From Nageia nagi (taxonomy: Eukaryota; Plantae; Pinophyta): a stretch of DNA of 64,000 nt. Positions within the stretch are counted from its first letter, which is position 1. Each line of letters begins with the position of its first letter. Position numbers and translations under genes: made by a program. Under the pieces are notes generated by a model that was given only the letters and a program-made list of their open reading frames with translations, had not been told where the DNA came from and did not search any database. Of this stretch, positions 9,014 to 48,282 are shown piece after piece. The stretch is from the NCBI GenBank assembly GCA_050084985.1, contig JBITNC010000001.1, forward strand, positions 204,662,001 through 204,726,000, read 5' to 3'.

Positions 9014-9018
9014 TGATG

Positions 9019-24421: not shown

Positions 24422-24574
24422 CCATTTCTCACATCTTCATAAGAACTGTTGATGTGTGAGTCAATACCAAGGCTGTTTATCCAAAAGCGGAAGGCTCGTT
24501 CCTCTCTTGCAACTTCATCATCTTTCAGAGTCTGGGCAATGGATGCCTTACTTGAGTCCATTGACAACCCTTTC
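24422..24574 (-). CDS. FIM: Fimbrin exon (ABD1-ABD2 linker and start of CH3)
   Basis: KGLSMDSSK...AREERAFRFWINSLGIDSHINSSYEDVRNG; CAG and GTAAG boundaries; 153 nt, phase 2 to 2. Confidence 0.95.
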
Positions 24575-27179
24575 CTGAAAAATAATCATGAAAGTACAGA
24601 AACTGTGGTGAATTTAAATTTGCCTTAGGACTTCACGCATCAGAAGGAAATAAAAGCTTGCCCATCTTAAAGAGAACTAATGGAAAGCTTCAATGAGAAT
24701 TACGAGAACAAATAGAAAGATTTAACAAAAATTCTTTTATGTTCTTTTTCATGCAAAGACCTATACAATTTGAGTCAGTTTGACCATAAGCAAATAGGGA
24801 CAAAACAAAACAATAAAAGTAACTAAGTGGCAGATAACTGGCAAGGACGCAGACCCAGTGGATACTGAGTTACAAGAGAAACAGGCAGAAAAACATCACC
24901 ACCCAGATGAATATCTTATGAACCTAATACTAAATAATCAAAATAATGATAGGCAAAACATAAAAATTAGAAGCGCAACTTACATGGTGGAAGACCAATT
25001 TCAGCATCATAAAATATAATATAAAATGTTGCCCAATAATATATACTTATTTTCACAAACCTTTGGGCTTTTGCAGATGTAATGTTTTTTGAAAGAAGTA
25101 TAGAACATTTTCTTACCTTTTCCCAACAAAAGAAAAGTGGGACAAAACAATTATGAATTATCTATTTCAGTACATGGAGAAATCTTTACCTATTTTGGTA
25201 AACTCTCAATTGAAAAGTTATAGAAAACATGGAGCTCAACGGTAAGAAATACTTCCATGCAATTTGTACTTCTCACAGTAGTCTCTATTTATTTGCACTA
25301 AGATGCAATTTAATATGAACCTGCTAAAAGAAAGTCAACATGCTCTATTGAGTATCAAATTTTGTGCATGTATTATAGCAGTAATTCCAATATGCCATCA
25401 TCTGCATCATTTAGAAGTTAAGTGGTTTTATATTTAGACAGAGCATTAAGAGTTTAGATAGAATATGTGACCTTTCGGTGAGCAAAACATCTATATGATT
25501 AGCTAAAAAGATCAATTGTGTCTACTGCCCGACAACAAAGGCAACGAAATTGGGGGCTTAAAACTCTACATAATTTACAAATTAGGGCAACTACGAGGAT
25601 CATTATAACCACCTTGGCCATGTAATATTTCATTCAGGGCCCAAGTTTCCTTTGAAAATGTAATGATATTATCCTCATTTATAGAAGTTTGGGTGTTTCC
25701 AAACAAATTAGCAGCTCATCCTTACAAAAACGTGTCCTCTACAGTATTATTAAGATGAAATTGGAGAAAAAGTTTAAGCATACAGACTGAGCACATATTG
25801 AGTGGCTCTAGATTCACCTAGAGTAAATGATCCATTTGGCTGATAAATTGGCTGGGGAACATCATCAGAATCATCTTTCATTTCAAAAGACTCCGATCAA
25901 TTGGCAATTCTACAGTTGGTAGGGAGAGATATTTGTATATTTTACCGATTTGCTCATCTTAGTGATTGCATTAAGAGTCTAGGTGGTTGAGAACATTGCT
26001 GTTATTTCACTACAAGCTTCTTCATTTTTTGGCATCTCTAGAGACTTACATCCTCCCATCAAAGAGTATATATATCCACTGTATATTCTATTTATATGGT
26101 CCTCAACACTCTAATTTCTTCTCCCCATATGGTCTTTCTATGCCCAAAGTTTCTTGCAACTTGAGGATGGGATCACCACTCATCCAAGACATATTCAACA
26201 ACATTGACCCATGGCCTTGGGATTTGTTCTACCCGCACAACACACCCCAAGATGCAGCATTTTGGGGACCCAATTTTTTCAAACGGCATCAAGCAACATT
26301 GTCTGGGCATGATCAACTTACAGCCGATATGGAGACCCAAAGCGACGAGATGATCAAACAATGCAAGAGCATGCCCGAAGTCATGAAGAGAGTTCAGCTC
26401 AGCCAATGGCCAAGTCAGGGCCCTGTTTCAAGCAACATCTCACAAGATGGAGTTGTGGATCACGACAGCAACGAGACAGTGGAGTTTTGAACGAATAGCC
26501 ATCAGGCAAAAAAGTTGTCGTTTTGGCAAGTTTGAGCAACAAAGGTGCCAAGACAACAAAAGGTGCATTTTTCGTCAAGTTTGAGCCTAGGAGTAGTGGA
26601 TACAGTTAAGATGACGAAAATGCACATTTTGGTACAAATTGAGCCCGGAAAGGGTATCTATAGCCAAAGAGTGCGTTTTTGTCAATTTTGAGCCCAGAGA
26701 GCCAAAAAATTGTCAACACAAAAAAGCGCATTTTGGTCGATTTTGAGCCCGACAATGGTCAATATAGTGAAAATGTGCATTTTTGCACAATTTGGACCCG
26801 AAAAGCTCGGGAATGACCAAAAATGCAAGTTTGGCCTCAGAGTGCTCAGAAATGCTCGGGAATACCGGAAATGATCTTTTTTCACCGTTCAAGCTCAGAA
26901 ATGTCCGAAAATAGTTGAAAAGTGTACTTAGAGCCCGGAAAGGCCGAAAATGCACCGTTAGGGCCCGTAAAAGATGGGAAAGGTCGGGAATGTGCTATAT
27001 AGCCCGAAATAAATGAGGAAAGCAAGTTTGAGCGCCCTTGAGGTCTAAAATAAAAAAATGAGCAGTTTGGCATCTGGAAAGCTTCGGGTTGAGCCCGAAA
27101 AGTGAGTTTTTTCAAAGTGCTCAGAATGAAAATCCGAGCGAGAGGTGTGGTGACAAATGATGAATTAAGGCCATTCTAC

Positions 27180-28900
27180 TCTTGGAAATTTCGAAAAAAC
27201 TTGAGTTTTGACCCCCGAAAAGTTAGGGGGAGTTTTACAAGTTTTCCCTCAATCAAATTTCAAAAAATGGTCTATTCTCTTCAAAACCTGCGCCTACCTT
27301 TTAGGAGGCCCAGATTGATCCGAAATGGCCATTTTTGAGCTCAAGAGTGCAGAGATCATGATTCTACATCAAATTGGTTTTTCAAGTTCGCGATTTCGAT
27401 GAGTTTTGCTCCACCGAAAGTGAGAAAAATAGGAAAATGAGTAAAAGGACAGCCAATAGGAATGCTCCAAAATTTTGAATATTTCAAAATTGCAAAAACG
27501 AAAATCCAAAGATGAGGTAGGGTGGCAAATCAAAAATTAAGCACTTTTCCTCTTGGAATTTTCGAAATTGGGCAAATTTTGACTCTCCTAGAGCTAAGCG
27601 CTGATTTTGGGTGTTTTCCCTCATTTTTCAAATTTTTCAAAACACCCAAAATGTCTCAAAACCTGCACCTACCCTTCTTGTGCCCCAAAAGTTAAAAAAA
27701 TTGGAAATTTTGACCTTCAAGGGGTATAGGATGGGATTCCACATAAGATTGATGATTTGAGTTCTTCAAAAAAATGAGATCTAGCTCCTCAAATCATCAT
27801 AATGTGATTGGCCAATGGGAGAGCTCCAAAATATTTCTAAATTTTTCAAAGTTGGCCAAATAAAAAAATAAAAGTGAGGTAGGGTAGCAAATTTGAAGAA
27901 GACCAATATTGCCTCTTATAAATTTGCAAAAAAAACAATTTTTGCCCCTCGTTTTCCTAGGCAGCAGTTTTGGCATGTTTTCCATATTTTCCAAATTCCA
28001 AAAAAACATGCCAAGACTCTCAAAACTAGCGCCTAGCCTCGAAGCCTCCTTTTTGCTCAAAAATCAAAAAAAATGATCTGAGAAGCATGGGAAATCCAAT
28101 TTTGCATCTTTTTCAAGTTTCGAGTTTTTTTTAAAAAGCGGATCTACTCACCCAAAATGACAAAATTTGGATCAGCCAATGGGAAAGCTCCAAAATTTTC
28201 CAAATTTTTCAAAAAAATCTCAAAATCAAAATTGGAAAGAAAGGTAGGATGCAAAATTCCAAGGAGATCAACATTGCCTCTTGCAATGTTGCAAAAAAAA
28301 ACAAATTTACCTCCTCAAAAAGCTAGGTGGCAGTTTTGGCATGATTCCCCCATTTTCAAATTCTTCCAAACCATGCCAAATGTCCTAAAACCTGTGCCTA
28401 GCTTGCAAGCCCTCATTTTTGCTCAAAAATCAAAATTTTTGATCCTAGGAGCATGGGAAATCCAATTTTGCATCTCTTTCATGTTTCAAGTTTTTGGAAA
28501 AAAGTTGATCTACTCCCTCAAAATCCAAAAATTTGGATCAGCCAATGGGAGAGCTCCAAAATTTTCCAAAAATTTCAAAAATCCCAAAAAAACAAAATTG
28601 GAAAGAAAAGTAGAGTTCAAAATCCAAATGCAAGCATCTTTGCCTTTGCAAATTTGCTCAAAAACCAATTTTTGCCTCCCTAAAAGGTAGGCGCTGGTTT
28701 TGCAAGTTATACCCCATTTTGTTTTTTTTCCAAAACCTGCCTAAACATCCTAAAACCTGCGCCTAGCCTCCTTGGTCCCTAAAAGTGCCCAAAATTGATA
28801 TTTTTCACTTCTATGAGGTAGGTGGTGTGATTCTACACCATTTTGACCTAACATTTGTGCAATTTGGCTCACACAAATTCCCAAAAACCACTTTTTTGCA
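27180..28900. repeat. Tandem array of about 365-bp units (4.5-5 copies)
   Basis: AAAACCTGCGCCTA-like marker at about 27284, 27658, 28022, 28387 and 28752. GCCAAT(G/A)GGA marker at about 27450, 27812, 28173 and 28538. Confidence 0.85.
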
Positions 28901-29174
28901 TTCAAAAAGGATCTAAAGGCTGAGAAAACTCAAAAAATTTGGATTTCCTTCAAAAATCTCAAAATTCAAAATCCAAATCTGAAGCATGGAGGTTGTAGAG
29001 CATTCCAAGGCCATCATCTTTCCTTCCAAGACCCCCCATGTTGCTCCAAAACTGCCCCTTCCACACTTAGGCGCAGGTTCTGGGTTGTTTTCCCATTTTC
29101 CTCCACTTTTCCAACGTTGGGCATGAAAGGGAATGGTCTAAATTGCAAGTTTTTCACTTAGGGTTGATATGGAA

Positions 29175-29213
29175 GTGACATGTGACACTTTTGAACCCCT
29201 TGAGTCTATAAAT
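29175..29213 (+). promoter_or_regulatory. Putative core promoter of ORF-X copy 1
   Basis: GTGACATGT...AACCCCTTGAGTCTATAAATA, similar to GTGACACGT...AACCTTAGAGACTATAAATA in unit 2. Confidence 0.45.
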
Positions 29214-30074
29214 ATGACCATACCCCCTCTTTTTGGCTCACCTCTCATTTTTGCACCCTTATGCTGCCCAGATTTTTGAGAATTTGAGAGCCAAGTGAGA
29301 AAAGAAGCCATTTTTTCAGCCTTGGAAGATTTTTCAAACACTTAGCATCTTAGCCACTCACCCAAACTCCATTGAAATTCGAAATCCAAGCATCCTCCAT
29401 CCACATGAGCTCTTTTTTTTCCAAGTTTTAAGGATTTTTTCACAAAAACCCATTTTTCAAACCCTCAAACACTTGAAAATTTATTTTTTCAGATTTCAAG
29501 TTTGATCACTTTTTTAGATACGCTTTATCCATATGATCAACTTTTATTTTCAGCTAAAAAACACAAAAAATTCATAAGATCCAAGATCGGAGTACTCAAA
29601 ATCCTTATTTCTTGAAAAAAAAAATTAAATCCAAATTTTTTCAGAAAACTCCAAAAATTGTTTCTGAAGTCTATTTTGGCCATTTCAAAGTCTAAAACAC
29701 CTTCCCCATTCATTTTCCATCCATCTAAGGTGTCAAAACTTGATTCCAACACCATTTGCCAATTTTGCCAAATTTCACCACTTTTTCCTGTTGAAAAAGT
29801 AAACTTTTTCGAGAAAAAATTGAAAATTCTCCAATCATCCTAATTTTTTTACCAAGGCATTCCCCTTTGAGGCTGTTACCTTTGTGTAATCTCAAACTCA
29901 CCTAGAAAGCCTTGAAAATTGCAAATTACGACACTTTTCGATGATGGCACACTTAGAGTGAAAAACACCAAAAAAAATCCAAGTTCTTTAGAAACCCCTC
30001 TTTGCTTGCCTAGAAAGTGCCACAAGCTTCCCAGGACTCTTTTAACTCTTGTTGTTCTCTTAGACAGGGATATA

Positions 30075-32110
30075 ATGGTGTTAGTCGCTCAAAACATCAA
30101 AGATCGGAAGCAGAGAAGGCTCACAATGGACAGTCTCATCACGCTCGAACACACAACAAAGCCAGTAATGCCTGCCGCAAGAATCATAGACCAACTGAGT
30201 GAGATCGGGGACACAAATTATAACTCCCTCAATCCAATAAAAACTCTAATGAAAATCCAAGCATTGGATCCAGCTTCGCTAGCAAAGGACACTTTGAAAA
30301 CCTCCTTACTAGTAACAGATTCTATGGTGCCATTCGCCACCCCCTTCCTTGAGCTATGTTATGAGCTAGGAAAGCATTGTGACATCAGAAATTGGAGACT
30401 CCTCGATAGAAGGAATGAAGTAATCATGGACTTCTCTAAGGAATGAATAGAAAGCGCTTTAGCTTGGAAAAATGAAGGCCTATCATACAACATATAGGAC
30501 TCCTTAAGGTTCTCCAAAAGTTTGAAGCCCCCAGCTGATTTGGTCAGAGATTGGTTGGCTGACGACTGTAAGCACCTCATATCAATGCTTTCCAGAGTGA
30601 CTGGATAGAAAGACGACACAAAATTCGTAGGGTTTATAGAGTTGATTAGCACTGGTAGAGGCATAAGGTGGAGTAGAGTAATTAGTGATTTCTTGGCTCA
30701 ACAACTGAAAAATATCCAGAAGAGTAGGAAATTTTATATGAACTCCTACCTGGTTTACCTATTCCTTCACGGTAGGGAGAGGGTGACCTCAGTCGCCAAT
30801 ACCCAATATCTTTATGACCCCACACATCCATTGTGGAAAACTAACCACGGTTCTTTGTTCATAACAAGTGGAACGAGGGAAACTGGAAGATGATGACCAA
30901 CGATTTTGAAGGGAAAATTTACGAAGAGATCATGGGCAGAGCAAATGTACTCAGAATATCCAATAAGGCTGCTCCCACTATCAAGGGACATGCGGACTTC
31001 TTTGTAGAAAACATAGAGTTCACCTAACTCAGGGTCTATGGCTCCAAAGAAGCCCCTTACAAGCTACTCTGTTACGCAAGTGACCGCATCATCCTTATGG
31101 AATTTTCAAGACACTTGCTAAACGTACACAACAAAGTATGGGTAAAGAAGGCGGCGACCACTTACCAATTACCTATTGTCATCGGGAATTATGAATGCAC
31201 CACCTGGCGACAGATTGAAATGATCAAACAAGAACTAGCATTGTATGAATTCTCGACAGAAGTAGCTACGGATCACTATGATCCCGATGGAGTGATTGAT
31301 GCATTTTTCAAGAAGACTTGGAGTTCGTCATATCCACATCAGTCCCTTGGTAGCATTGAGAGATACGGGAACATTCAGGATGCCCTGTAGGTTCAACAGA
31401 TTCACAAGGAGCTGAAAAAAGAACAAAAACAACGTGAAGCCGAAGAAGCTGCTAGGATAAAAGCCAATGCACAAGTCATCGTACCCCCGAGCCATGGGTA
31501 TGTTATTCCAATAATATCCCCTTCAGTAACCCTGGCTCAAGGACAGAACAGGCAATATGCTACCAATAGCATCCCCGGACAAACCATTGAAACAACAGTC
31601 ACGGGTACGAGGAATGAAATTTTGGACCTCAAAAGAGCAGGCCTGATCTGTCAACCATTCAAACACTTGCAAAAAAAGATAAACCTCCCACAAGGATTGA
31701 ATCGGAGTGGTATGAGCCTAAATAAAAACCCTAGCACATCATCATCCAGTTCCGACAAATATGGACCGAGCGACTCATCGAAGACCGATGAAGAGATGGA
31801 TTTTGCTGCAGTCATCAACACCGACATGGAGATAAACCAAGATATTGCCTTTGAGCAGGCCGACACTGATCATTCAGTAGAAATCCTCAATGAGGGAAAT
31901 CCCTCAATCGATATGATTGTACAACAAGTAGCAGGAGCAAGTACCTCAAAATCCGCTCCTCGGAAATAAGCATCGTAAATGCCACCATCTCGAAGGACTA
32001 CGACAACATCAACTCAGAAGGGTACTTCAAGACCCAAGATGATGGCATCATCTTCAAGGGGAGATGATGGAAATCAAGAGGATGAGGGAGAAAATGAGGA
32101 ACAAGGGGGA
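30075..32110 (+). pseudogene. ORF-X copy 1: uncharacterised TE-borne protein, decayed
   Basis: Pieces 29919-30446, 30642-30893, 31097-31390 and 31622-31969 align colinearly with ORF-X copy 2 (VIMDFS, WSRVISD, FYMNSYLVYL, RVYGS, SDR.ILMEF, YDP.GVI). Confidence 0.75.
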
Positions 32111-32111
32111 A

Positions 32112-32349
32112 TGTTAGACACATAATCCTTAGGGATTATGGTATCTATAATATAGTAGTATTTATTTACTATATTTAGTAAATTCAGCTATAGGAATTTA
32201 CTTGCTTTTTAGGTGTAATAACGAAGTGCATATGAAGAGTCCATGTGTAATCCAAAGGTCACCTATGGAGGTGAATATGTAAAGTCATATTGTGATGTAT
32301 TTATTCTCATATCAAAGCTAATACAATGCCTTTTTATTGTGGAGTTACA
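32112..32349 (+). repeat. Short orphan LTR-like sequence (238 bp)
   Basis: TGTTAG...GTTACA termini, preceded by PPT-like AAGGGGGAA, with an internal TATA-like site. No TSD and no partner LTR. Confidence 0.5.
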
Positions 32350-34800
32350 CTTGGCCTTGCATCATTGAGATTGTTCTTGAAATATCGGTGGGACATCCAC
32401 ATGAATTCAAACTCGAAGGGAGTCCTTCTCATTTGCTGCATTTCAATTCTTAATTTAATCGGCCTATGACTAGAAGCAAATCTTAGGTAGAGATGATAGG
32501 ACTGAGTTTTGGTGTTCCTCTACCCAATTTACTGAAACAACCATTCTATCCAGACTTCTTTGGATGAAATTCTTACCCCATCTACAATTTGACCATGTGA
32601 ATCTATTTCCTTTCAAAGGGATATCTATAAGCTTTGACTCATTTAAGAAATCTCTCAAGTCCAGCATAACCCTAGTTATTGTTGTTTATCCTCCAAGTTT
32701 AAAGGAGTGTTGAAGTCTCCTCTAACTAGCCAAGGTTCAGATATAAATCCCATTCTATGGGCTTTTACAAAGTCCTAAAAATTTCTCTCCTTTAAATTGT
32801 TTGGTGCATAAATATTTGACATAACAAAGGAAACATTATCTTGGATATCGTTTACTCTCACTATGATACATCTTGGGGAAGGATAGTGGATTCTTTGAAC
32901 ATCAACATTATGGGGGTTCCACAAAATGAGAAGCCCTCCTGACTTTCCTAATGCATTACTGAATTCCATTCTTGAGTTTCTCCATATTCTTTTATTTATT
33001 TTTTCCTTGACAGTATCCTTAATTTTTTATTCCTGTATCATAACAATGTCTGGTTTATGTTTCCTCCATTAGTTCCTCACAACTTTTTGTTTGTCGGGGA
33101 AGTTGCAACCCCTTATAGTCCATGATAAATTGATCATTTATTCCTCCTAGCAGCTTTCCCGTCTCCACTTTGCTCTGTAGTGTTTGATCTCTTTTTCTTT
33201 CCAATGTTTTCTCCTTTCCCTTTCCTTCTCACCTTCAAGCTTTTTCTTGTATTTTGTATTAGTTTGGAGTCAGGTATATCATTTTCTGTCATAATTATTT
33301 TGCATCTTCTTTCTTCTTCTTATCGATCTTCTTTCCACTTTGATGGATTCATTAGATTCCCTATCTTTTGATTCTATCTCATTTTCATTCTTTGTTTCTT
33401 CCTCATCTTCTTCCATTTGTTGCATTCTTACTGAGAGGCTATTAGAAATATCATTCAATTGTCTCTCTCTTACTTGTGAGATAGTCTCAACTTCCCCCTC
33501 CCAAAATTAATTCTTGTTGCTACCTCGCTATAAGTGGGTGTAGATACCTTTTTGGCAAATTTTGGAGTATGCACCGTTGTTTTACTAGGTGTGGTTTCTT
33601 TCCTCACCTCCATCTTTGTTTGAAGAGTTGTCACTTCTGAGGATTGACGTAATGGTTTGCTTGCATTTTGGATCAGTTGAGTTCCTTCTATTCTTTGAAC
33701 ACTTGTTTCTTTTTCCTTCTCCTTCCAATACTATTCCATAGTTTCAAAGGTCTTACCCATTTGTTGTCATTTGGAGTTTTGTCCATTTTCAGATCTTTTC
33801 ATCATGCAAACCTTTGTTTCATGGTATTCTTTGTTACATATACTATATCGTTTGTTCCTATTTTGTGTTAGAGGACATTGTGAAGCTATATGGCCAATCT
33901 CATGGCACCATCTGCAATGAAAGAGGACTCTCTCATAGTCCAAGGATTGCATCCATGCCCCCAATTTAGTGTTAATCTTGATCTTCCTTGCGAGGGGTTC
34001 CTAGATATTAAGGTTCACACAAATTCTTGTTGTCATGGCATTCTCCCTTCTGAAGAAGTTTTCATCGATCTTTACATATTCTCCGATAGCATCACCAATG
34101 ACTCTAATCACTTTCTCGATCCAGAGGTGTTGTGGTAGATAGTAAAGACGCACCACACTAGCACCGTCGTGATGTTCTCAATCCATGGGTTGAAACCCTC
34201 ATGCCATCTTTTAACAAAAAGACCATAATTTCCCAAAAAACAATGGTCGTTATCCAACACAAAAGAAACATCCTCTAGTTCTAAAAAGTAAGCTGCAAAG
34301 AAACCCTTAGGGAGGATAGTAAAGCTTACCTGGCCTTTTAGTTCCCCTTTGTCCTGGGCCCATGTTTTGAGGGTTGAAATGCCTGGCCAATGGCCAGTAA
34401 ATTTCCCCACAAGGCACAATTGTAGTTCTTCAAGGGTCTCCTCAATCAACTCATCATCAATATTGATTTCTGGAGTTGTTTCTTTCAGTTTGCACAAGGT
34501 GCCACTTCCTCCTTTGTCCGCTCTACCCTATCCCACAAAACGTTGATTTCCAAGACTGTTCTTGTTCCCTATTCCCTACACCTAGCTAAACGTTTTGCCA
34601 CCCTTTTCCCATTCGCTTTGTCCACCTACCACTCCCAAATCCGTCCCAAAACCAACCCCCTTTTCAGAATATCTGCTACTCGATCCTCCTTGCCTATCTC
34701 CCCCGTTGTCCTCCCTTCATCCCATTTGGTCCTCCAACTTGCCTCCTGTTCCGCTGCCTGCACCTTTCCCTCCATTTGCCATTTTCAAAAATCTTTGCTT
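32350..34800 (-). mobile_element. L1-clade LINE with 5' portion retained (ORF1 plus endonuclease of ORF2), RT missing
   Basis: ORF1 DUF4283-like LCLVGKFTG...VKRWHEGFNP and knuckle CRWCHEIGHIASQC. Endonuclease motifs GKSGGLLILWN, NIYAPN, GDFN, FTWSN, LDR and PFEFEFMW. Confidence 0.88.
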
Positions 34801-35002
34801 TTAACAAAGGAATATAGAAATGGAACAAGAACTTTCCAAAACAAAAGTTTGATGGAAGATACAAAATCAAAAAGGCAAAATTTTACCACAAAAAGGCCCT
34901 CATAATTCTATTAAAAATATTGTCACAAATTTCGAGATGGTGAAAAGAGAAAGGTAGCAAACCAATATTAAAAGCATAATTGAATTAACAAGTTGACCTC
35001 TT

Positions 35003-35963
35003 TGTCATGTGCCTTTTTTCAAGCTATGCCTTTTGACTTTGGCAATGACCTAAGGGGTCCACTTAGAGCTTGATGTCAACCCTTAGGGGACATCCAAGCA
35101 CATGATAAATGTAATTTAGAGGTGAATTTGGTAGATAGGAGCTTTTATTGATAGTTTCGCATGTATTTAGGCATCTTTGTAACCAAGCGAAGGGAATTTG
35201 TGGGTCCTAGAGACCAATTTGTAAGCCCAATGTGGGATGTCTCACTCCTTGGATAGATAATAGGTTTTTAGTAATGTTATGATTGATTGTTGAGATCCCG
35301 AGATTGATTATGTACATCCCAAGACAAATCCAGGCATTAGAACATTGGTGCCAAGCACTTGATGACTTCTAGGTGAGATCTAGAAATCAAGGTAAGGCAT
35401 CTAGCTAGTTATAGACCCAGTGCAAGGTTGAGAGAGAGCTTATGATGATTTCTAATATTTGTCTTTGACATTTGGGAGTTGGTGTGAGCTATCTCTTGGG
35501 CCTCTTGTTGGACAAAAACCTAGCAAGAGAAGAATCTAGTGGGATGCAACCCCTACCAGATTTAGAAGCATTACTTCTATCGACTCGTGGAGCACCAAGT
35601 GTTAGGAAAAGCACTTTGGTGGAGCACCTAGCTTGTCTGAGGAAGTAGAGCTTCAGTTATTCATTTCTAGATCTGGGTGAGAGACCCTAGTGCAAGATGT
35701 TAGCCTTCTGAGAGCATTTTTGTTGTTTGATCTACCCTCCATAGCTAGACTTCAACCCTATTGGGCCATATATGCATTGTACTTGCTCCATTTGATGATA
35801 TATTGATACGTAGGCTTTTGGATCTCATATTTTGTGTGGTGTTTGAGCATCATTATGTGACATTGGCATTTTTGCATTATTTTTGAGCCTAGAAGTTGCC
35901 CTAGTTAGTTTGTTGCATTTTTGGCTTAATAATTTCGGCATACAAATATTTTGGTTCATCATA
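35003..35963 (+). repeat. Chromovirus 5' LTR
   Basis: Direct repeat of 47322-48282; 10 differences in the first 120 bp, mostly transitions. Confidence 0.95.
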
Positions 35964-36282
35964 GTGGTATCAAAGCCTGATTTTGCCAACCTATGGAAAT
36001 GGAAAAGAAAGAATCCTTCAGATCTGCATCAAAATTGAAAAAGATGGACACAACTGTAGACATGATGTCAAATTGCTTGAAACAAGCAAGAGGAGATAAG
36101 GGAAAGCAAGGATGAAGATCTGCAACATAAGGGCATCACACAAGGTAGAGAAGGTGGAGAAAGGACAAATCTAGAAGCTCCAACGTGTCCATCAGCCACT
36201 TTCCCACCACCACCTCCTTGGCCACACTTGAGCCAAATTTATAACCCTAGCCCTCATGGATACGTCCGACTCTTAAAGGAAA

Positions 36283-36555
36283 ATGAAGTGTCATGGAGAG
36301 ATGAAGAGTTCGAGTCTAGAGAGGGTTCCACACTTTGATCGTGAAGGGAAGATCTCTCCTAGGGCATGGTTGCAAAGGCTACAAGCATTTACCGCCCTCA
36401 ACCGCCTATCAGCGGCAGATTCAATGCAAATGGCCATCTTATATCTAGATGGAGTGGCGCAAGCATGATGGCACCATGGGGAAGAGACCGAGGATCATAG
36501 TTTCATTTGCTCATTGGAAGAGTTTGGCCAACAAATCCTAGATCACTTTGATATC
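36283..36555 (+). pseudogene. gag: Chromovirus gag, N-terminal part up to the nested insertion
   Basis: RVPHFDREGKISPRAWLQRL...YLDGVAQA*WHHG...QILDHFDI; the reading continues at 44033 as KDEEEYFLDLVSLKQQGSL. Confidence 0.85.
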
Positions 36556-38462
36556 TATTGTGCCTGCACAACACCCCCCAAAATTCTACATTTTGAGGAC
36601 CCTCGTAAAATCAAACACAAATGCATCGAAGAAATTTTTTCTAAGGGAATGCATGAATCATAGTCCAGTTAGAGGAAACATGTTAAAATTTGCACGTCCA
36701 TGATCAAATCCAGTCAAGAAAATGGCATTTTTCCTTAGGCGCATGTTTTGAGGGACATGCTTTTGCAAGTCCCCTAAAACGTGCGCCATCCTTCATTCTG
36801 CATTTTTAGTGTTCAAACTTGCATTTTTGGCCATTCAAGTTGCATTTTCAGGTCCATCATGCAGCAAAATTCATCCCCCTTCATTTGCATTTGCATTCGG
36901 GAATCATTCTGGTCAAGTTATCAAAGAAAAATCATGTTTTTCCCCAAAGTTGCATGTTGGTGCAACCAAGGAGGTGGACGTCACATACTTAGAATTTTTT
37001 TGAAGTCATTCAGCTTGCAAGGAAAAAGAGCAAGGTGCATGTTTTGAGGGACACGCTTTTGCATGTCCCCTAACAGTGTGCCCAAGGAAATAAGGCTCTA
37101 TACTTAGTCATTTTTTTAGCAAAGTTCCAAAACAACCTAGGTGCATGTTTTGAAGGACTTGCTTTTGCATGTCCCCTATATTGTGCACCCAACTTCAAGG
37201 AGTCAAATTTGGCTAATGTTGAGCTCCGACATTGACAAGTGTGACTACATGCATTTGACCCCAACTTGTACCAATCACAAGGTGACACCTATCCATCCCA
37301 GAGAAGGCTATAAAAGGAAGGTCAACCTCAGTTAATTAGTTTGGAAAGCTAAGTCTGGAAGCCTACGTGGAGTGAAGGAATGAAAGCACATCCCCTAAAA
37401 TGTGTGCCCTATTCCAGATTGCAATTTTTCAAGTCAATTTCATTTTTTTAAAGGTTTCCTACAATGGGAGGCATGCCATAGGCCCAAGTGCACCATTTTT
37501 GGTACATGCTTGGGCACCCACTCCAATTGGTGAGCCCGATCCCAAACGCCTTGGCCTAAGGGTAAAATTGACTAAGTGTGGAATTTAACTTAAGGAGGGC
37601 CAAACGCATGCTTTCAGGTGCATGCTTTTGCACCCATCTCAAAGGGTGCGACCAAGAAACAAAGCTTTCAAGTGGTATGAAAATTGACTAAGTCTTTTGT
37701 CCTTGGGCACATACATTCCAATACATGCTTTTCCACACCTCTCAAACTATGCGCCCTTCATTCCAGCCCCATCATTTGACCTCAATTTCAACCAAACAGA
37801 GGGTGACACGTTGCAACCTTAGAGACTATAAATACTAAGTCACCCCTTAGTCATTTTCATTACTTCATTTCAGATTAGCACCAAGATCCCTAGTCGCACC
37901 ATTCCAGGGACATGTTTGAGCACTCATCCAAATTGATGCACCAAGGAGAAAGGAGTTAAAGGCTTTCTTGTACAACCAATTAGCCATTTTTGGCTAAGGC
38001 ATTTCATTTCGAACCCAAGGAGCTGAGGCGCATACTTTGCAATATATGCTTTTCCACTCACCTGAATCCATGCACCTAGGTGTGAAGTGATGAATTGTGC
38101 CCTAAAATTGACTAAGTGACCAAGATTCCCAGTCACATGTTTTCTAGGCAATGAAAAAGCACCCATCTCAAACCATGCGCCTTGCGGTTAGGAGCTAAAA
38201 TTGACTAAGTGTGAGATGCCAAGAGTTGAGAAGTGAAGAAAACAAGTGGCAAACATACATTTTGCCATGCATACACTCCATGCATCAACTATAAAAGAGG
38301 GCAGCCTTGATTCATTTTTGTTGGATGTTCTGTAACCCAAACCTACACGTTTGGCCTCTTTTGCTACATCCTTTAGGGTATTCAGATTGATACTTAGTCA
38401 GTTTTTGAGGCATTTCCATCCATTTTCAGTCCTTTTCCTCCTCATTTTTTCAGGATTCAAAC

Positions 38463-41400
38463 ATGACTTCCAAAATAAGACCGCCCCCACTCAAGGCCAA
38501 GAAAACTCAGGGGCAGTTGTTTGAAAGACATGTAACTAAGGATCATATGACAAGGCTCTTGAGAGAGAGTCAGATAGAGTTTCAAGAAAGGGAAAGACCA
38601 AAGCTCCCTAAAGCCAAATTCAAGGGAGATACATCTTCGTTGGAGACACAGACTAGGGAAATGTTGACCCCATCCAGACCATAGCCTCCACTGCCTCCAT
38701 CAGTAAGGAGGACCCATTAGATGAACTCATCCACACCTATGGATTGTTCAATGCCACCATGATGTCTTTTGTAGTTCCATTTCATAACTTGTGCTACAAG
38801 GTAGCCAAGAGATGTAAATTTGACAAGAGAGTCCTCCAGGACACATAGGGGAATGTGATTATGGATTTCTCCCTCGAAGGATTTGAAGCAACCTTTGGCT
38901 GGAAAAGATATGGGGACGATTATACATTGGAAAATTCAGAAGAGTTCCATGATTCCACTGCCCGGCCTGGGGACTACATAAAATCATGGCTATATGAAGA
39001 TTATCTAAACATCCAAGGCCATAGATTGGTCAGCGCCCGTAGGGGTGAATTCCTGCCTATTGTGGCCAAGTTGATCACTTTGTTGTCCATAGTCACAGGT
39101 TGAGAGAATGACTCTAAATATAGGAAGGAGTTTACTGGATTCATTGCAGTAATCAGCTCAAGGAGAGCTATCATATGGAGTAGGGTGATCAGTGATGCCC
39201 TGCATCACCAACTAGCTTACTTTGGCTCTTCGAGAAGATTTTATATGAACTCCTATCTTGTGTATTTGTTGTTGCATGGCAAGCTCAGAACCAAAGAGCT
39301 TGCGAATGAAAGGTATTTGGGTAAGAAAGGCATTCCTGTGTGGCAGGTTTACCCAAAGTGGTGGTATCACAACAAGTTCCAGCATTTCTATGAGAGAAAT
39401 GATCAGTGGGAGTAGTCCATCTATAAATACATCAAAGGGGAATCAATTGTTAAGAGGATTTCTGATGATGCCATTCAAGCCATCAATGCATATGCAGATT
39501 TCTATCTGCAATATATTGATCATACATCCATCAGAGTTTATGGTTCCGAAGAGCAACCCCTACTGCTGCCCAAATATATTAGTGACAGACTCATTCTCAT
39601 GGAGTTTGCTAGATAGTTGTTGTTTTTGAAGGAACGAGTATGGAGAAAGAAGAATGCAACTATCAACTTGCCCATCTCCATCGCAAATTATGTTTGTTAG
39701 ACGTGGGTTGAGGCCAGCAATATGAAAAAGGAGCTGCAACAGTACATCTTCTTCAAGGAGATTACAGCTAGAAATTATGATCCTAGAGGTGTGATTGCTC
39801 ATTTCTACAACATTCCAGAAACCAATCACTTTTCAGCACAAATCTTTAGGGAATGTGGAGAAGTATAAAATGTGTAGAGTGAGAAGGAGATTACAAGAAT
39901 AGATGCTCTTTTAAGAAAGAATAAGACCCGCCTCTAGGCATAAAGGCCACATCAAAAACCACACACTATCAAAGCATGATCTAAAGAGGTCCCACTCAGG
40001 ATCAAGACATCTACTCCTTCCACTAGTCCCGCACAAGACAGAGTGCCCTTGCTTCCTATTGGCAAAAGACAAGGAGCTCCAAGGGAGCACACCCCAGGCC
40101 CTAGCAAACGTAGTGTAGTGATGGCCGATTTGAGAGATGTTGGCTACCGCACTGTCCCCTTGAGCATGCTAGAGGAGGCCTGTGCCAATGATTCACCCAA
40201 GGAAAAGTTCCCTCGCCGCAACCAAGTTCCAATTCTTCTAAGCATTCCACTTCTTCTTTCGATGCAAAAACTGATGAGGAACTCGTCCGTACAGTAGAAG
40301 ACTCTGACGAAGAGACAAAGAGCCAGAGGAGTGATGAAGAGAGCCATGGTGAAGAAGAGGAAGAAGAAAGAATATGATGATGATGATGATGACAACGCTG
40401 CTGATGAACAGTACCCCGAGCAAGACAACGTAGTTGCAGGTGCTTCTGCACCTGATGAGACGAAAATTAAAACTCTCCAAGATAATGATGAGATTGTGGA
40501 TGTTGGGACCTATGATGATGAGGTCCGAGTTGTTGGAGTAAAGTGTGCCAAAGAGGTGGGTGCCTCCAAACTATCTCCTGCCGAGCATACAAAGAGGTCA
40601 CCCTCGTCTTCCCAGAAGCCCTCCAGGAAGAGGACCAACCCTGAGAGATCCCCTCAACCACGAAAGAAAGGCATGTCAATTGGTGGCGATGGCAAACACG
40701 AAGATGATGAAGGGGAGACTGAAAAGCAAAAAAATAAGAGAAAGCAAGACGAACACCCAGGCAAGGATGTTGCCCTTGTTCGGACTACTCCGACCAAAGA
40801 GGTCAAGAACATCAGCAAAGGTCAATTGTTGGTGCAGAGGCTCCCTCCTTACCCAGCAACCGAACATTCGAACCTTGACCTGGATGCCTACCTTAGAGGC
40901 CTCAGCACGAGTACGGCTCATGATGAGGAGATAGACCAGGACCTGCGTTCTAAGGATGAAGAAGAGGAGCTCTCCGATGGTGAGAAGATTAGAAGAGTAT
41001 ATACATTTGTTTCCACCTCCCGAAAGGAGATCTCCATTAGTCATTGCTATTCAAAGGAGAAGCATCCTCAAAGGGCAGAAGATTGTGTGATTGAGATGTT
41101 TACGATGCCTATAAAGTTGGGATTGACGGCCCACAAGAACATATATACTTAGAATGTTGCAGTCATGGAATAGGAGAGCTATGAAGCCAAAAAAGAGGTG
41201 AAGAGATTGAAGAAGAAAATCATGGCCAGCAAGAAAACCATCAAGGAGTTCCAGAACATCAATACCAGCCCTCTTGATCTAAAGAAGCAGACCTTGTTCC
41301 AGGAAGGATGGGAGTTGATGAAGGAGGAGTTGAAGAAGGAGATGATGGAGACCATTGAGAAGTTATCTTCTCAAATCTACAGCCTCCTCAAAGAAGATGT

Positions 41401-42020
41401 TGAAATCTAGGAGCTCAAGTCCCAAATCACAGCACACCTCGAGAAGTTGTGCTGAAATCTAGGAGCTCAAGTCCCAAACATTAGTAACTCCCTAACGTCA
41501 CCTACTTACAGCAAAGTTTGCCGACTGGCTCGAGAAATTGGTCTACTTCAATGAATTTACTTACCATCACGACTGGTTGAAGCATGCACTTGAAAAGTGC
41601 AATGCAGTTTTGAAACTCAGAATCCCCTTGAAGAAGCAAGTCGAAGAGCAAATGAGCACATATGTCTACCAGCTCAGGTTCTAGAGGGAGAATAACAGCG
41701 TGAGGAAAAAGGAGGCAGTATTGGCAAAGGCCCAGAATTTGATCCAAAAGCATCTAGACGTCGATGACCTCAGTTTGTTGAAGGCAGGGCATCCCATCAT
41801 CCATGAGAGACAGATGGTCATCTAGAGATACCAAATGCAAGCTACATCCATACAAATCGGGGACTATTTTTGATAGAACAATAGCATTGTTGGCATGATC
41901 TCCAAGGGTGTACGGAAAACCATGGCATTTTTAGAGGAGACCATTAAGTCGTACGGTCTCACCAGCAAGGAGTGGAACTCCGTCGATACCGAATCATATT
42001 TGGCCTATTGAAATGTATAA
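38463..42020 (+). pseudogene. ORF-X copy 2: about 1.2k codons with conserved N-terminal domain, acidic low-complexity middle and coiled-coil-like C-terminus; decayed
   Basis: Colinear ORF pieces 38463-38684, 38855-39103, 39185-39415, 40331-41152 and 41198-41410. Polypyrimidine tract plus CAG at 38451-38453 just before the ATG. TATAAAT at 37827. Confidence 0.75.
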
Positions 42021-42227
42021 TGCATTATTGTAAAGGTTTGTATTAAATCTTCTATGTAAGTTCACTAATACTTAAGGGTATCATTTGATACCTTAAGTAT
42101 TTAAGTGAATATGATAATGTAACTTGTCCTACACTCCATGTCATGAGCATGCCCCTTGGGTAAAAGGATGTGCATGTCATGCTTTTGTACATTGGATAAA
42201 AGGGTGATCCAAAGAGGGATTTTAGCC

Positions 42228-42234
42228 TATAAAT
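42228..42234 (+). promoter_or_regulatory. Putative main LTR TATA box (U3/R boundary region) of unit 2
   Basis: GCCTATAAATAAAAAG lies downstream of ORF-X and is followed by about 1.8 kb of T-rich R/U5-like sequence. Confidence 0.45.
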
Positions 42235-44032
42235 AAAAAGCTCCTTTTTTGTGATTACACACCAATTGTGGAGTAAAGTTATGCCATAGGATAGTGGTTA
42301 GGAGAAAAGAGTAGGAGGATTGTAAAAGATTCATGTTTGTGAATGAAGTGAGATCTAGTTAGTGGATGTACTCCTAGTTGGAGGAACCACTTACATCGTG
42401 TGTCACTTTGTGAGATTGTCTTATTTGTGAGTTTGTTAGATGTGTATTGTGAGCTTTCATGTGATCTTGGGTGTTTAGGAATTATCTTGTTAGTGTTAAT
42501 TCCTTCATGGCCTAGATCCAATCCACTCACAAATTCTGTTTGCGATAATCTTTGTTTTGTTTAATGCATATCGATGATGGTGGTTGTTGTTTGTCATACT
42601 TTATTTACTTGATTTGATTGGTGTAGGGTTGAGGTTTTGCTCCCGCCAGATCAAATCCGTCAGACTCATTTATGACTATGACCGATGCAGGGATGAGGTT
42701 TTGCTCCCTCCGGTTTAACTGTCAGACATTTATTGCATATTTGATCTGCTTTTGCGTAGTTTAGAGGTAGATTAAATGCATTTTGGTAGTGGCATTTATA
42801 TTTTGTTAGTTTTTAAATGCCACTTGCATCGTTTTATGTGAACAATTTGATTTTGTATTGGTATGTGTGTTGCATGTGTGCACACCATATCGGATTTGAT
42901 GCCTTTAGGGCAACACTTCTAGTGGCCTATTTATACCCGATTAAGGCCATTTAGAAAGGGATTTTTGCATTTGGATGCACGTAATAGAATCTTTGCATAT
43001 TGACGATTATTACATTTTGGAATGTCTGTAACAAGTTTTTGCATATGTAAGGAATTTTGAGACTATTGCACCTGCTATAATTGAGGATTTCTACATTTTG
43101 AATGTGTAACAAGATTTTTACATATGTTTGGGTTGTTGCATACGTAAGGCTTTGCATTTGTAAAAACTGAGGACTTATGCATTTGTAAAGCTGAAAAATA
43201 CAACATATGTGTCATTTCTGCATATTATTGCCTATCTGTAAAGGTTTTGCATATACGTGAATTTGCATCCGAAAGATTTCAGCATTCCATTGCATAGAGG
43301 TTTGTTGCATAAGGGATTCTATGCATATTATGTCATTTAATATCATCATGAATGGATTTCTTTCAAGAATAAGGTTATAAAGTAAATACTGTGAAGATTG
43401 TCATTTGTGGGATCATGTATGTCTGAATAGTTTTCCTTTTGAAGCTGCATATTGAATATTTGTTGAAGTGGTTTAAGCTATTCATTGCATGGTTTGCACA
43501 AAAGTGAATGTATGTTGAGGAGTATAGCTTGTCTCTATATCATTCAGTTAGGCTTATGTATTCACGCCCTCAATTCATTTACCGTTGTTCCACCTAATCT
43601 CGCACCAAAACCCTACAACTTCCTGCTCTCGTCTGGTAGCAATTTGAGCGCATATTGCTATTTGTTTCCCGGCTTGATAGTGAATACACTTCCATTAATA
43701 AATCCGAAGATGACCTACCAAGACACTGCATCATCGATGATATCTTCATAAGTTCATCGTTCTTTATATTCCTATGCATTTATCCCTACATTTGTGATCT
43801 TTCTTTGCTTTCGTTCACGTTTGCAATCTTTCCTCATTGTGGAAAACGAACTCCAGTGGTGTATTTCCCTTGTATGCGGTTAACAACATGCATCTCTGAC
43901 CATTGTGCCCTAGAACATATTCCATGTGAGCGCTTGGGGTAACCAGTCCTTTCAAGAGGAAAAAAATAACATTATTTCCTCCAAGTCTTGTGCATATTTT
44001 GGGCGAGAAAAGAAAAACATACCAACAATATC

Positions 44033-47000
44033 AAGGATGAAGAAGAATATTTTCTTGACCTTGTCTCACTCAAGCAACAGGGATCCCTAGATTCATATTT
44101 CATAGACTTTCAGTAGAAGAGCATTTTGGTTACTCACATTTCGCCAAGGGAGGCTAATTCATTCTTCTTGGAAGGTTTGAAGGAACCATTGAGAAGCCTT
44201 GTCAAAGGATGTTTGCCACCATCATTGAGCTTGGCCATCCAAAAGGTTTATGCATTGGAAAAGGCCTCTAAGCATGAAACGATTGCACCTAGGGAGCATG
44301 GATGTCCATCTAACAGGAAGAAGGGCGAACACAAGGGCCTCAAATGGCCAGATCTGAGAGAAGAGATGCTAGATTTGAAAAAGAAAGGTGAAAGGAAGGT
44401 AACTCTAAGGAATAAACCCACGTTGGGGAGGATGGAGGAAATCCCTCAATTTGTGATAGCCAAAAAGATGGAAAAGATAGTGAGGCAAGGAGATCTTGAA
44501 TAGGGAGCTACGTTTATCATGGCCAAGGGAAAGCCAACAAACTATGATGAAGGGGAGCAACATCCCAAAGAGATCCAAGCCATTCTTGAACATTATGGTA
44601 GTGTTTTTGGAGAAATCCCAAAGGGTATGCCACCGAAGAGGGGATTTGACCACATTATTGAGTTGGAGCCTGGATCCCAACATATGATGATCACCCCCTA
44701 TAGACACCCACGCATCTATAAGGATTAGATTGAGAAGACCATCAAAGAATTCTTGGAGATGGGGATCATTCGTTCTAGTTCTAGCTCTTTTGCTTCATCG
44801 GTTGTGCTTTGTGGATGTACATTGACTATAGGGTACTCGACAAGAAAACAATCAAGAACAAGTATCCCATTTCTAGGGTTGATGAGCTCCATGGAGCCAA
44901 GAATTTCTCTAATATAGATCTAAGATCTGGTTACCATCAAATCCATATGAGGGAGGAGGACATCCATAAGACAGTTTTCCGTTGTCATTATGGCCACTTT
45001 GAGTTTTTAGTCCTGCAATTTGGATTAACTAACGCCCCAACCACATTCCTATCAGCCATGAACGAGGCCTTCAGGGAGCAACTGCACAAGTATGTCTTGG
45101 TATTCTTTGACAGCATACTCATCTATAGTTCATGGGAGGAGCACTTGGTACACTTAGATGCAGTTTTGGAGATCTTAAAGCAATAGCAATTTTATGCCAA
45201 GAAATCCAAGCGTGAGTTTGGCATGACAGAGATCCTATACCTTGGGCATGTGATCAGCCATGAGGGAGTACATGTGGATGAGCAAAAGATCCAAGCCATT
45301 CAAGAATAGCCCACACCCACCACACTCACGCATTTGAGGGGATTTTTGGGCTTGTGCAATTACTACATGAGGTTCATTTAAGGGTTTTCACATTTGGCTG
45401 CCCTTTGACACAACTCACCAAGAAAGAAGCATTCCTTTGGAGTGAGGAGGCCCAAGGAGCTTTTGAGGAGCTCAAAAGAGTAATGTGCACTTGTCCCTGT
45501 TTAGCGATTCCTGATTTTTCTATTCCATTTACTGTTGAGTTTGATGCATCCAAATATGGAATAGGGGTTGTCCTTACGTAAAAAGGGAAGTCAATTGCCT
45601 TCGAAAGCAAAAAATTCACCTCCATGGAGCAAACTTTCAGCATTATTGAAAAGGAAATGTTGGCCATCATGCATGCGTTGGCAAGATTTAAGCAATACCT
45701 AGGGTGTGGAGGTTTTGTGGTTAAATTTGACCACAATAGCTTGAGGTATTTCTTTGGGAAAACAAATGTGAGTGAGAAACAACAAAAGTGGGTGAGTAAA
45801 TTGCAATCCTACGATTTTGAGATAGAGTACATCAAGGGCAAGAAAAATACAATTGTTAATGCCCTCTCATGCAACCCTTCTTTTTATTCTATTTCTATCA
45901 TCACTGTTGATTGGAGAATGACGATTGTGGCTGAGTACGTGAAGGATGAGTTTGCTACCAACGTCATTGAGGGGCACATTAAGAATGAGAATTTCAAGGT
46001 GAAGGATAGGTTGATTCTTTACAAGGAAAGGATCTTTCTTGTACCAAGATCCAAGGTGAAAGTGAAAATCCTCACTATCATGCATGACGCACCACTAGCT
46101 GGGCATCCAGGGCTCCTCAAAATGTAAAAATCTGTTAGGAAGAGGTTTTCATGGAAAGGTCTCAAGGAGGATGTCTACAAGCATGTGAAGGAGTATGTCA
46201 AGTGCCAAGAGAACAAAACTAAAAATGTGTTTCCTCCAGGTTTGTTGCAGCCTTTAACCATCCTTGTACAAAAATCGGAAAGTATCTCCATGGATTTCAT
46301 CAAAGATTTGCCCAGATATCAAGGTAAAGACTATCTTTTAGAAGTTGATAGATTGACAAAATATGTACACTTCTTTGCTATTACCATGGCATATACAGCC
46401 ATTACAAGTGGCTGAACTTTTCTTCAAAAAAGTTTTTAGTTTGCATGGACTGCCAAAACAAATTGTGAGTGACAGGGACAATAAGTTCATGAGCATATTT
46501 TGGCAAGAGCTTTTTAAGCTAAGTGGTACAAATCTATCTCCAAGTACTAGTTATCATCTCCAAACTGATGGGCAAACAGAAATAGTAAGGATACCTAAGG
46601 CACTATGTAACAGAGCAGAAATTAGCATGTGTGAAATGGCTTCATCTTGGGGAGTATTGCTGCAACTCCACATACCATACTTCCATCCAAATGTCTCCTT
46701 TCTTTGCGTTGTATGGTTATGAGGCCTCAAATTTTGTGGATATGATTTTTGGGGAAGGAAGGGCCCCAAAAGCTAAAGCGTATTTGCAAGATAGTCAAGA
46801 CATTTTGAGAGCTCTCAAGGAAAATATACAGGTAGCCCAAAACCGTCAAAAATGGTTTGCTGATCAAAACAGGACTGAACGCATTTTTGAGGTTGGGGAC
46901 ATGGTATACTTAAGATTGCAGAGTTTAAGCAATCCACGTTGAGGGGGAAAGGAGCAGGGAAGCCAAAACCATGCTTCTATGGGCCTTACAAGATCCTACA

Positions 47001-47290
47001 CAAGGTGGGAGAGGAGGCCTACGAATTGAATTTGCCAGTTGGAAGCAAGATCCACAACACATTTCATGTCTCATGCTTGAAGAAGGCTATGGGAAGATCT
47101 ATCTTTCCCTCACCAGATTTACCATCAAGAAAGGAAGTTAATCCTTGTTCTTGAGCGCATATTGGACACCAATGAGAGGAAATTAAGATCCAGGACGGTC
47201 AAAGAGCACTTGGTCAAATGGAGTGACTTTCCAGATGAGGATGCTACTTGGGAAGGATCAGAAATTCTCTCACACCCAGCTTTGAATTGC
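44033..47290 (+). pseudogene. pol: Chromovirus gag remainder and pol (RT, RNase H, integrase, chromodomain), frameshifted; protease not seen
   Basis: [84 protein letters not shown] and HLVKWSDFPDEDATWE. Confidence 0.93.
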
Positions 47291-47321
47291 TTGGGAACAA
47301 GGAAAACGGGAAGGGAGGGTT

Positions 47322-48282
47322 TGTCATGTGCCTTTTTTCAAGCTATGCCTTTTGACTTTAGCGATGACCCAAGGGGTCCACCTAGAGCTTAACGTCACCC
47401 CTTAGGGGACGTCCAAGCATATGATAAATGTAATTTAGGGGTGAATTTGGTAGATAGGAGCATTTATTGATAGTTTCACATGTATTTAGGCATCTTTGTA
47501 ACCAAGCAAAAGAAATTTGTGGGTCCTAGAGACCAATTTATGAGCCCAATGTGGGATGTCTCCCTCCTTGGATAGATAATAAGCTCTCAATAATGTTATG
47601 ATTAATTGTTGAGATCCCAAGATTGATTATGTACATCCAAAGATAGATCGAGACACTAGAACATTGGCACCAAGCACTTGATGACTTTTAGGTGAGATCT
47701 AGATGTCAAGGTGAGGCATCCAACTACTTATAGACCCAGCGCAAGGTTGAGAGAGAGCTTATGATGATTTCTGATATTGTTCTTTGACATTTCGAAGTTG
47801 GTGTGAGCCATCTCTTGGGCCTCTTGTTGGAAAAAAACCTAGCAAGAGAGGAATCTAGTGGGACGCAACCCTTGCCAAGTTTAGGAGCATTACTTCTATC
47901 CACTCGTGGAGCACCAAGAGTTAGAAAGAGCCCTTTGGTGGAGCGCATAGCTTGTCTAAGGGAGTAGAGCTTCAGTTATTCATTTCCAGATCTGGGTGAG
48001 AGACCCTAGTATGAAAGGTCAACCTTCTAGAAGCATTTTTGTTGTTTGATCTAGCCTCCAAAGCTAGATGTCAGCCCTATTGGGCCATATTTGCATTGTA
48101 CTCGCTCTATTTGATGATATTTTGAGACGTGGGCTTTTGCATCTCATATTTTGTGTGGTGTTTGAGCATCATTGTGTGACGTTGGCATTTATGCATTATT
48201 TTTGAACTTGGAAATTGCCCTAGCTAGTTCGTTGCATTTTTGGCTTAATAATTTTGGCATAAAAATATTTTGGTTCATCACA
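47322..48282 (+). repeat. Chromovirus 3' LTR
   Basis: TG...CA termini, preceded by the PPT and followed by TSD CTCTT. Confidence 0.95.

Follow-up and report, generated by a model that had tools for sequence, protein, structure and literature searches.

A decayed gene with a predicted VANC/PMD-type fold in probable retrotransposon long terminal repeats of Nageia nagi, and its possible role against silencing

We analyzed a window of 64,000 nt from Nageia nagi (Pinophyta), positions 204,662,001 to 204,726,000 of contig JBITNC010000001.1, which carries two decayed copies of a protein-coding gene, ORF-X, in two repeat units (units 1 and 2). The gene was under purifying selection at the protein level, unit 2 has the ends and the target duplication of a long terminal repeat (LTR), and arrays of a short motif lie upstream of both copies. 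We propose that ORF-X was an accessory gene in the U3 part of the LTR of a plant non-chromovirus Ty3/gypsy retrotransposon, and that its VANC/PMD-type product acted against silencing by binding a motif in its own LTR. Binding and anti-silencing are inferred by analogy, and the chain as a whole is given slightly less than an even chance. The gene copies and their parts are located as follows (positions in the window).

30075..31969, + strand: ORF-X copy 1, a pseudogene; conserved core at about 30159-31330, frameshift near 30850.
38463..42515, + strand: ORF-X copy 2, a pseudogene of about 1,180 codons; end at about 42515, length by comparison with the related locus L001.
About 38630-39460, + strand: predicted VANC/PMD-like domain of copy 2.
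To about 39830, + strand: second conserved subdomain of copy 2, followed by a charged low-complexity linker and a heptad-like helical tail.
42006..42507, + strand: nested high-copy solo LTR of another family, 502 bp, target duplication TGGCC, just before the end of copy 2.

An earlier note, made from the sequence, had named a series of amino acid blocks shared by the two copies, and all of them were present, on the plus strand and colinear. In BLASTP searches with X at stop codons, copy 2 was compared with copy 1 in its two frame pieces, with 92/251 identical residues for one piece (37%, E 3e-51) and 70/181 for the other (39%, E 2e-35). By BLASTN, in contrast, units 1 and 2 had only a 40-bp start and a single 27-bp coding match in common. 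The copies thus represent one protein in units that are otherwise unalignable, as had been suggested, and chance similarity was rejected. Their C-terminal parts do not align (best E 0.011), which also agreed with the note. Both copies are pseudogenes as it had stated: copy 1 contains 5 stops before 31967 besides its frameshift, and copy 2 is interrupted by a frameshift near 38625 and by 15 stops within 38630-41452. The proposed domain length of about 400 amino acids had to be given up, since copy 2 is much longer; its 1,180 or so codons were counted with the nested 502-bp solo LTR set aside. This insert is absent in L001 and was skipped by the contigs of three of four runs. A profile of 135 relatives found only copies 1 and 2 in the window (next match E 0.41).

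In three DNA-like runs, the summed contig depth of the nested 502-bp solo LTR exceeded that of ORF-X by several hundred times, and its family is extremely abundant.

Copy 2 and L001 have a DNA identity of 79%, and L001 is colinear with unit 2 over 38286-42892. Over 383 core codons dS was 0.554 and dN was 0.098, and the resulting dN/dS of 0.177 (bootstrap 0.126-0.255) understates the constraint because neutral changes that followed the insertion are counted in. Read in shifted frames, these columns gave values of 1.49 and 1.08, and the linker gave 0.38. This result supported the purifying selection on the protein that had been suspected from the sequence. Between copies 1 and 2 the synonymous sites were saturated (pS 0.805) and no dN/dS was obtained; differences amounted to 45, 32, and 68% at the three codon positions.

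A scan of 1.84 billion representative proteins yielded 151 proteins at E ≤ 0.001, 59 at 1e-10, and 13 at 1e-30, so that the family comprises at least 151 representatives at the 50% level. The 153 relatives collected had a median length of 146 aa, only four reached 400 aa or more, and one was an unbroken protein of 1,010 aa, as is expected of a repeat family consisting mostly of dead copies. The 16 long rows of the alignment were mostly 14-59% identical to each other. None of ten relatives looked up had a name beyond hypothetical protein. Among metagenome contigs, one of 52 candidate stretches was confirmed as a relative, the longest related locus was 4.6 kb, and no relatives were seen among viral contigs. 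A word-index search with the family alignment returned three known members and no protein of 1,769-5,000 aa, a null result of little weight. None of three core pieces matched Pfam at E ≤ 10, none of 26 relatives reached a curated Pfam cut-off, neither PF09331 nor PF10536 was found above its curated cut-off, and 135 members gave scattered weak Pfam matches only. The PDB gave no match by sequence, and the best profile match to it was only at E 1.5. The Pfam searches and protein scans revealed no gag, pol, env, or transposase signal, in line with the earlier note.

Forty-nine columns of the alignment are conserved at ≥60%. They are mainly hydrophobic, Gly, Pro, and aromatic, with five Arg, three Asp, two Glu, and no His, a composition that fits a binding protein better than an enzyme. 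The second conserved subdomain (residues ~303-431 of the intact relative P0026) contains a near-invariant Asp (38/41). Copy 2 and another relative, P0084, have heptad-like stretches in their tails, but copy 1 has none. A simple scan of five proteins revealed no strong hydrophobic or transmembrane segment (best 19-residue Kyte-Doolittle mean 0.95-1.58).

The LTR context of the copies is defined by the following features.

36556..44027, + strand: unit 2, an insertion of 7,472 bp; ends T(A)TTG...CCAACA, target duplication ATATC on both sides.
26225..26271, + strand: start of unit 1; TG terminus and LTR-start motif in common with unit 2.
43944..44027, + strand: LTR 3'-end motif and CCAACA terminus of unit 2, in common with a solo LTR (55439-56925) and a minus-strand LTR ending at 59671.
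35003..48282, + strand: host chromovirus (Ty3/gypsy, chromodomain) of unit 2; LTRs at about 35003-35963 and 47322-48282, target duplication CTCTT.

Unit 2, which measures about 6,965 bp without the nested insert, is inserted into the gag gene of the host chromovirus, which stops before the unit and resumes after it. No repeat of its start or end, and hence no LTR pair, was found inside unit 2, and neither was a credible primer-binding site (PBS) or a polypurine tract (PPT) with an LTR start behind it. Two pattern matches, one PBS-like and the other PPT-like, lie inside ORFs, outside of any LTR context. Terminal inverted repeats (TIRs) or a transposase were not found at the units. An inner LTR pair would be obvious, because unit 2 is younger than its host, whose own LTRs are still 89.8% identical (K2P 0.103). 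Unit 2 has the TG...CA-type ends and the 4-6-bp target duplication of a solo LTR; unit 1 has the start only. From these sequence features we consider it highly probable that unit 2 is a single LTR with ORF-X inside.

The start motif of unit 2 also opens unit 1 (26225), the solo LTR at 55439-56925, and the minus-strand LTR near 63652; the pattern common to units 1 and 2, chosen after viewing the sequence, gave two matches against 0.00 expected. The 3' motif gave three matches against 0.00 expected and lies 70-110 bp before the ends of the solo LTR and the minus-strand LTR. Unit 1 has the same order as unit 2, with LTR start, repeats, TATA-like box, and ORF, and is likely to represent an LTR setting as well. 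The LTR setting assumed for both copies is therefore supported for unit 2 by its ends and target duplication, and is likely for unit 1, for which the start speaks.

Some further observations were made at the units and related LTRs. The beginning of unit 1 (26550-27200) is CpG-rich (observed/expected 0.75-0.87), above most elements of the window, and contains repeated GAGCCC-type words. The solo LTR at 55439-56925 is 1,487 bp long, lies inside a copia integrase-like stretch, and has the start and end motifs of unit 2 without ORF-X or a motif array. The minus-strand LTR (~63652-59671, about 4 kb) is followed after its end at 59671 by a PBS-like stretch that is not of the tRNA-Met type and that may resemble tRNA-Asn. 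A PBS for tRNA-Asp, Asn, or Arg, rather than tRNA-Met, is a mark of the Tat clade and Athila. It also contains a stretch of 280 codons (61200-60360) with six stops in one frame and 11 and 15 in the others. No Pfam match and no likeness to ORF-X were found for this stretch, which may represent another gene, unrelated to ORF-X, within a related LTR.

A 13-bp motif, AGGCGCAKGTTTT, is repeated upstream of both copies, though the upstream regions do not align.

27283..29081, both orientations: motif array of unit 1, 7 copies of AGGCGCAKGTTTT, K = G in 6/7.
36737..38182, no strand given: motif array of unit 2, 8 copies of AGGCGCAKGTTTT, K = T in 7/8.
29206..29214, + strand: TATA-like box upstream of copy 1.
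37826 and 38289 (37826..38297), with another at 37308, + strand: TATA-like boxes upstream of copy 2.

The TATA-like boxes were recognized by sequence only. With up to two mismatches allowed and the expectation taken from shuffles, the window contained 20 matches to the motif against 2.26 expected, a figure that overstates the case and to this extent weakens our reading, because the motif was picked after viewing the sequence and its copies are products of duplication. Seven matches lie before copy 1, eight before copy 2, two in the minus-strand LTR, three elsewhere, and none in the ORFs. The variable K, the eighth base of the motif, differs between the two subfamilies. The array of unit 1 includes a 366-bp tandem repeat (27811-28627), while that of unit 2 contains five dyad units of 49-50 bp, each of which begins and ends in the motif core. 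The statement that the upstream repeats of the copies differ completely did not hold, since both the LTR-start motif and the 13-bp motif are common to the two units. The motif might just as well be a site for a transcription factor of the host.

In the minus-strand LTR, at 62400-63350, we observed 48-bp imperfect palindromes bounded by GGCGCATG...CATGCGCC, similar to the 50-bp dyads of unit 2. As ORF-X is missing there, these palindromes are a possible target in trans.

The fold of the ORF-X product was predicted with AlphaFold2 for P0026, from an alignment of 135 rows (133 of the 153 database relatives and the two window pieces; pLDDT 86.9), and with AlphaFold for the domain of copy 2 (277 residues, 90 rows, pLDDT 86.4). 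When the P0026 model was compared with 48,161 solved chains, the VANC21-DNA structure 9lnk_A was the only match at Z ≥ 5 (Z 8.4, rmsd 4.5, 232 aligned residues), and the next match had a Z of 2.6. The copy 2 model matched the same structure at Z 7.6 (rmsd 4.8, 236/277 aligned), followed by a match at Z 3.2. The ESM Atlas, which works by a different method, gave DUF1985 (0.84 and 0.86) and PMD (0.82), all below the 0.9 line and taken as leads only. VANC contains DUF1985 and is similar to the PMD found in MAIL1 and MAIN (10.1101/2024.09.27.615353; PMC13547354). On the strength of the models, ORF-X very probably belongs to the VANC/DUF1985/PMD structural group. The guess of a remote PMD-like relationship was thus supported at the level of predicted fold. 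Of the idea of an orphan domain, the invisibility to Pfam remains, while the domain joins a structural group known from Tat/Ogre extra ORFs. The route of structure prediction followed by Foldseek, advised in the earlier note, led to models and non-significant Foldseek results; it was the separate structural search that pointed to VANC21.

In the mechanism that we propose, ORF-X would have been transcribed from its own U3 promoter, with the TATA-like box between array and ORF. Its product would have oligomerized through the helical tail and bound the AGGCGCA(G/T)GTTTT array, each subfamily preferring its own variant. Binding would have kept the LTR free of silencing marks through local loss of DNA methylation or Polycomb marks. 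By the location in U3, both LTRs would receive a copy of gene, promoter, and sites, and a solo LTR, in which these stay intact, could go on to influence related copies in trans. ORF-X does not count as a VANC, given the wrong element class and the missing Pfam match, and by analogy it probably works like one. That a gymnosperm lineage carries a self-contained anti-silencing module of this kind in a 7-kb LTR, with a VANC-fold gene, its promoter, and co-evolving sites, and with solo LTRs unsilencing copies in trans, is a more far-reaching idea that we regard as rather doubtful.

Several observations weigh against this reading. To share a fold is not to share a function, and among PMD proteins those of the host have a part in silencing too. 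Z values of 7-8 are within the typical range of the tool for models without a clear match and can reflect a common arrangement; we favored the VANC21 match nevertheless, because it extends over most of the domain and is widely separated from the scores of the other chains. The rmsd is high, identity to VANC21 is only 5-10%, and the two models share alignments and are not independent. Foldseek against the PDB gave nothing at E ≤ 0.001, with VANC21 at rank 7 (E 4.1, prob 0.12) for the P0026 model and not among the matches listed for the copy 2 model. PMD, DUF1985, Transposase_32, and ATHILA were not among the Pfam matches listed (25 of 44 families, 135 members, E ≤ 1). CpG observed/expected at the arrays (0.13-0.75 and 0.14-0.42) showed no consistent excess over the host element (0.11-0.45) and no sign of low methylation in the past. 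A protein of the same fold and in the same place in the LTR may therefore have served another step, as an activator of LTR transcription, in pairing of LTR ends or steering of integration, or as a decoy for host PMD partners, with silencing marks unaffected. The arrays without a CpG signature are compatible with this, and so is the second conserved subdomain with its near-invariant Asp, which had no match above Z 2.6 within the whole-protein model (it was not folded alone) and is followed by a long helical tail. Since the one matching solved structure is that of a DNA-bound, sequence-specific anti-silencing factor, and since the gene, like VANC genes, has a family-specific repeated motif next to it, we consider this alternative unlikely, though it is the strongest of the rivals.

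Other points concern the layout of the element. A complete two-LTR element with ORF-X was not seen, and unit 1 has no recognizable 3' end and no target duplication within 26300-36000. The related LTRs of the window, of 1.5 and 4 kb, are without ORF-X, and contig depth is several-fold higher towards the 3' end of unit 2, so that this end is common to more copies than the ORF is. With a length of about 7 kb, unit 2 also exceeds the LTRs of up to ~5 kb in PMC6317226. All this would suit an ordinary internal extra ORF, situated either on the 5' side of gag, like that of Ogre, or, like those of Athila/TatII, after pol and before the 3' LTR, with units 1 and 2 as deletion derivatives that resemble single LTRs; internal PMD/coiled-coil extra ORFs are the known layout of the Tat lineages (PMC4408406). 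Two deletions would be needed, however, and unit 2, although younger than its host, has no end repeats, credible PBS, or PPT. Moreover, two subfamilies that are 37% alike keep the order of LTR start, array, TATA-like box, and ORF, and L001 follows unit 2 colinearly, which makes an internal position distinctly improbable. DUF1985 as the best named Atlas lead, the death of all copies in the window, and the four of 153 relatives with at least 400 aa could also point to cargo, with part of a MULE DUF1985 gene or of a host PMD gene captured by the LTR and of no use to the retrotransposon. A dN/dS of 0.18 between two element copies, the many subfamilies with 14-59% identity, and the lack of introns, TIRs, or transposase nearby leave little room for it. 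An env-like membrane protein, to which the sense orientation and heptad-like tail would correspond as in so-called env-like ORFs (PMC7264820), is hardly credible in view of the missing strong hydrophobic segment, the globular, soluble model, and a Foldseek search of a viral structure library with nothing at E ≤ 0.001.

The window consists of AT-rich plant DNA. Minus-strand exons with calponin-homology domains lie at about 23613-23984 (within 23613-24600) and at 49860-50267, and belong to a gene that is presumably fimbrin-like, by its motif. The intron of about 25 kb between them is full of nested elements, with at least three nesting levels, an architecture suggestive of a gymnosperm, and contains both copies of ORF-X; since these lie in an intron of a minus-strand gene, ORF-X as a host gene was rejected. 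ORF-X as a part of the chromovirus gag-pol was likewise rejected because of the target duplication of unit 2 and the gag resuming beyond it. One other element adjoins unit 1:

32350..34900, - strand: L1-type LINE fragment (DUF4283 ORF1 and endonuclease).

Outside of this intron, a pair of direct repeats (418-1150 and 8318-9014) is 84% identical, starts with TGTAGA, and probably represents the LTRs of another element, in what we take to be a PPR-like repeat region. A tandem array at 57596-58400, with eight copies of 68 bp and then three of 59 bp, directly follows a copia RT-like fragment.

What the extra ORFs of plant Ty3/gypsy elements do has been asked for a long time (PMC7264820, PMC4408406). 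ORF-X ties such an ORF, by predicted fold, to a protein of known mechanism, and a candidate target motif with one base different between the two subfamilies lies next to it. As PMD extra ORFs are already known in Tat/Ogre, what is novel here is a family that is invisible to Pfam, without a model despite its size, and its probable location inside an LTR. With a large gene inside an LTR, solo LTRs would not be inert, and LTR-finding software tuned to short LTRs would overlook or misread such elements. A VANC-fold gene inside a plant LTR was not described in the literature searched, which left out most subscription papers. If the far-reaching idea of a self-contained module is true, this would be, within that literature, the first sequence-specific anti-silencing system found in a plant retrotransposon; it would assign a function to the Tat/Ogre/Athila extra ORFs of the PMD type and offer one explanation for the filling of conifer-type genomes with such elements. 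The idea of transposon-encoded PMD proteins as anti-silencing factors has already been raised for DNA transposons (10.1101/2024.09.27.615353).

Among known systems, VANC of the VANDAL Mutator-like DNA transposons (VANC21, PDB 9LNK; DUF1985) is closest, as the best and only clear match by structure, which extends over most of the N-terminal domain. Both are accessory genes encoded by an element, both products have a helical tail, and VANC likewise has a short motif repeated in nearby non-coding DNA that varies between families (PMC5735166), to which the ORF-X motif, chosen post hoc, can be compared. In contrast to VANC, which resides in a DNA transposon with a VANA transposase, ORF-X lies in a retrotransposon-type unit with TG...CA-type ends and a 5-bp duplication. 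Besides the low identity and the absence of a Pfam match, its motif, a putative binding site, is different. VANC was called dicot-specific in PMC13547354, whereas the window is from a member of the Pinophyta.

The extra ORFs of TatIII and Ogre with PMD (PF10536) or PMD and coiled coil share with ORF-X a globular domain of the same group and a coiled-coil-like tail; in PMC4408406, none was found in lineage II. These ORFs lie in the internal region (5' in sense or 3' in antisense orientation), where the review PMC7264820 also places additional ORFs, while ORF-X is apparently inside the LTR, in sense orientation, and does not match PF10536. For 27 gymnosperm TatII elements of REXdb, extra ORFs were listed in 23% as 5' forward and in 26% as 3' forward, together with a tRNA-Asp/Asn PBS (PMC6317226 Additional file 5); Additional file 4 gives no CDD domain for TatII. 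The forward ORFs may be ORF-X in both LTRs, which the near-equal shares would fit in a comparison by description only, and ORF-X may have been captured earlier, unannotated, among them. Members of the Tat clade are recognized by RT phylogeny and an additional RNase H in pol, and neither ORF-X unit is linked to pol. Athila ORFs (ATHILA ORF1, PF03078; Transposase_32, PF20167) are sense accessory ORFs of the same superclade, with predicted coiled-coil oligomerization like that of VANC (PMC13547354). A transmembrane helix was predicted for the Athila ORF of sunflower (PMC11728184), unlike for ORF-X. The Athila ORF also lies between pol and the PPT, and ORF-X has no Pfam match to either of its families. 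Genes in or overlapping U3 are found in retroviruses, namely MMTV sag, HIV nef, and foamy virus bel; these encode unrelated proteins of animal viruses with far shorter LTRs, and share with ORF-X the proposed location in U3.

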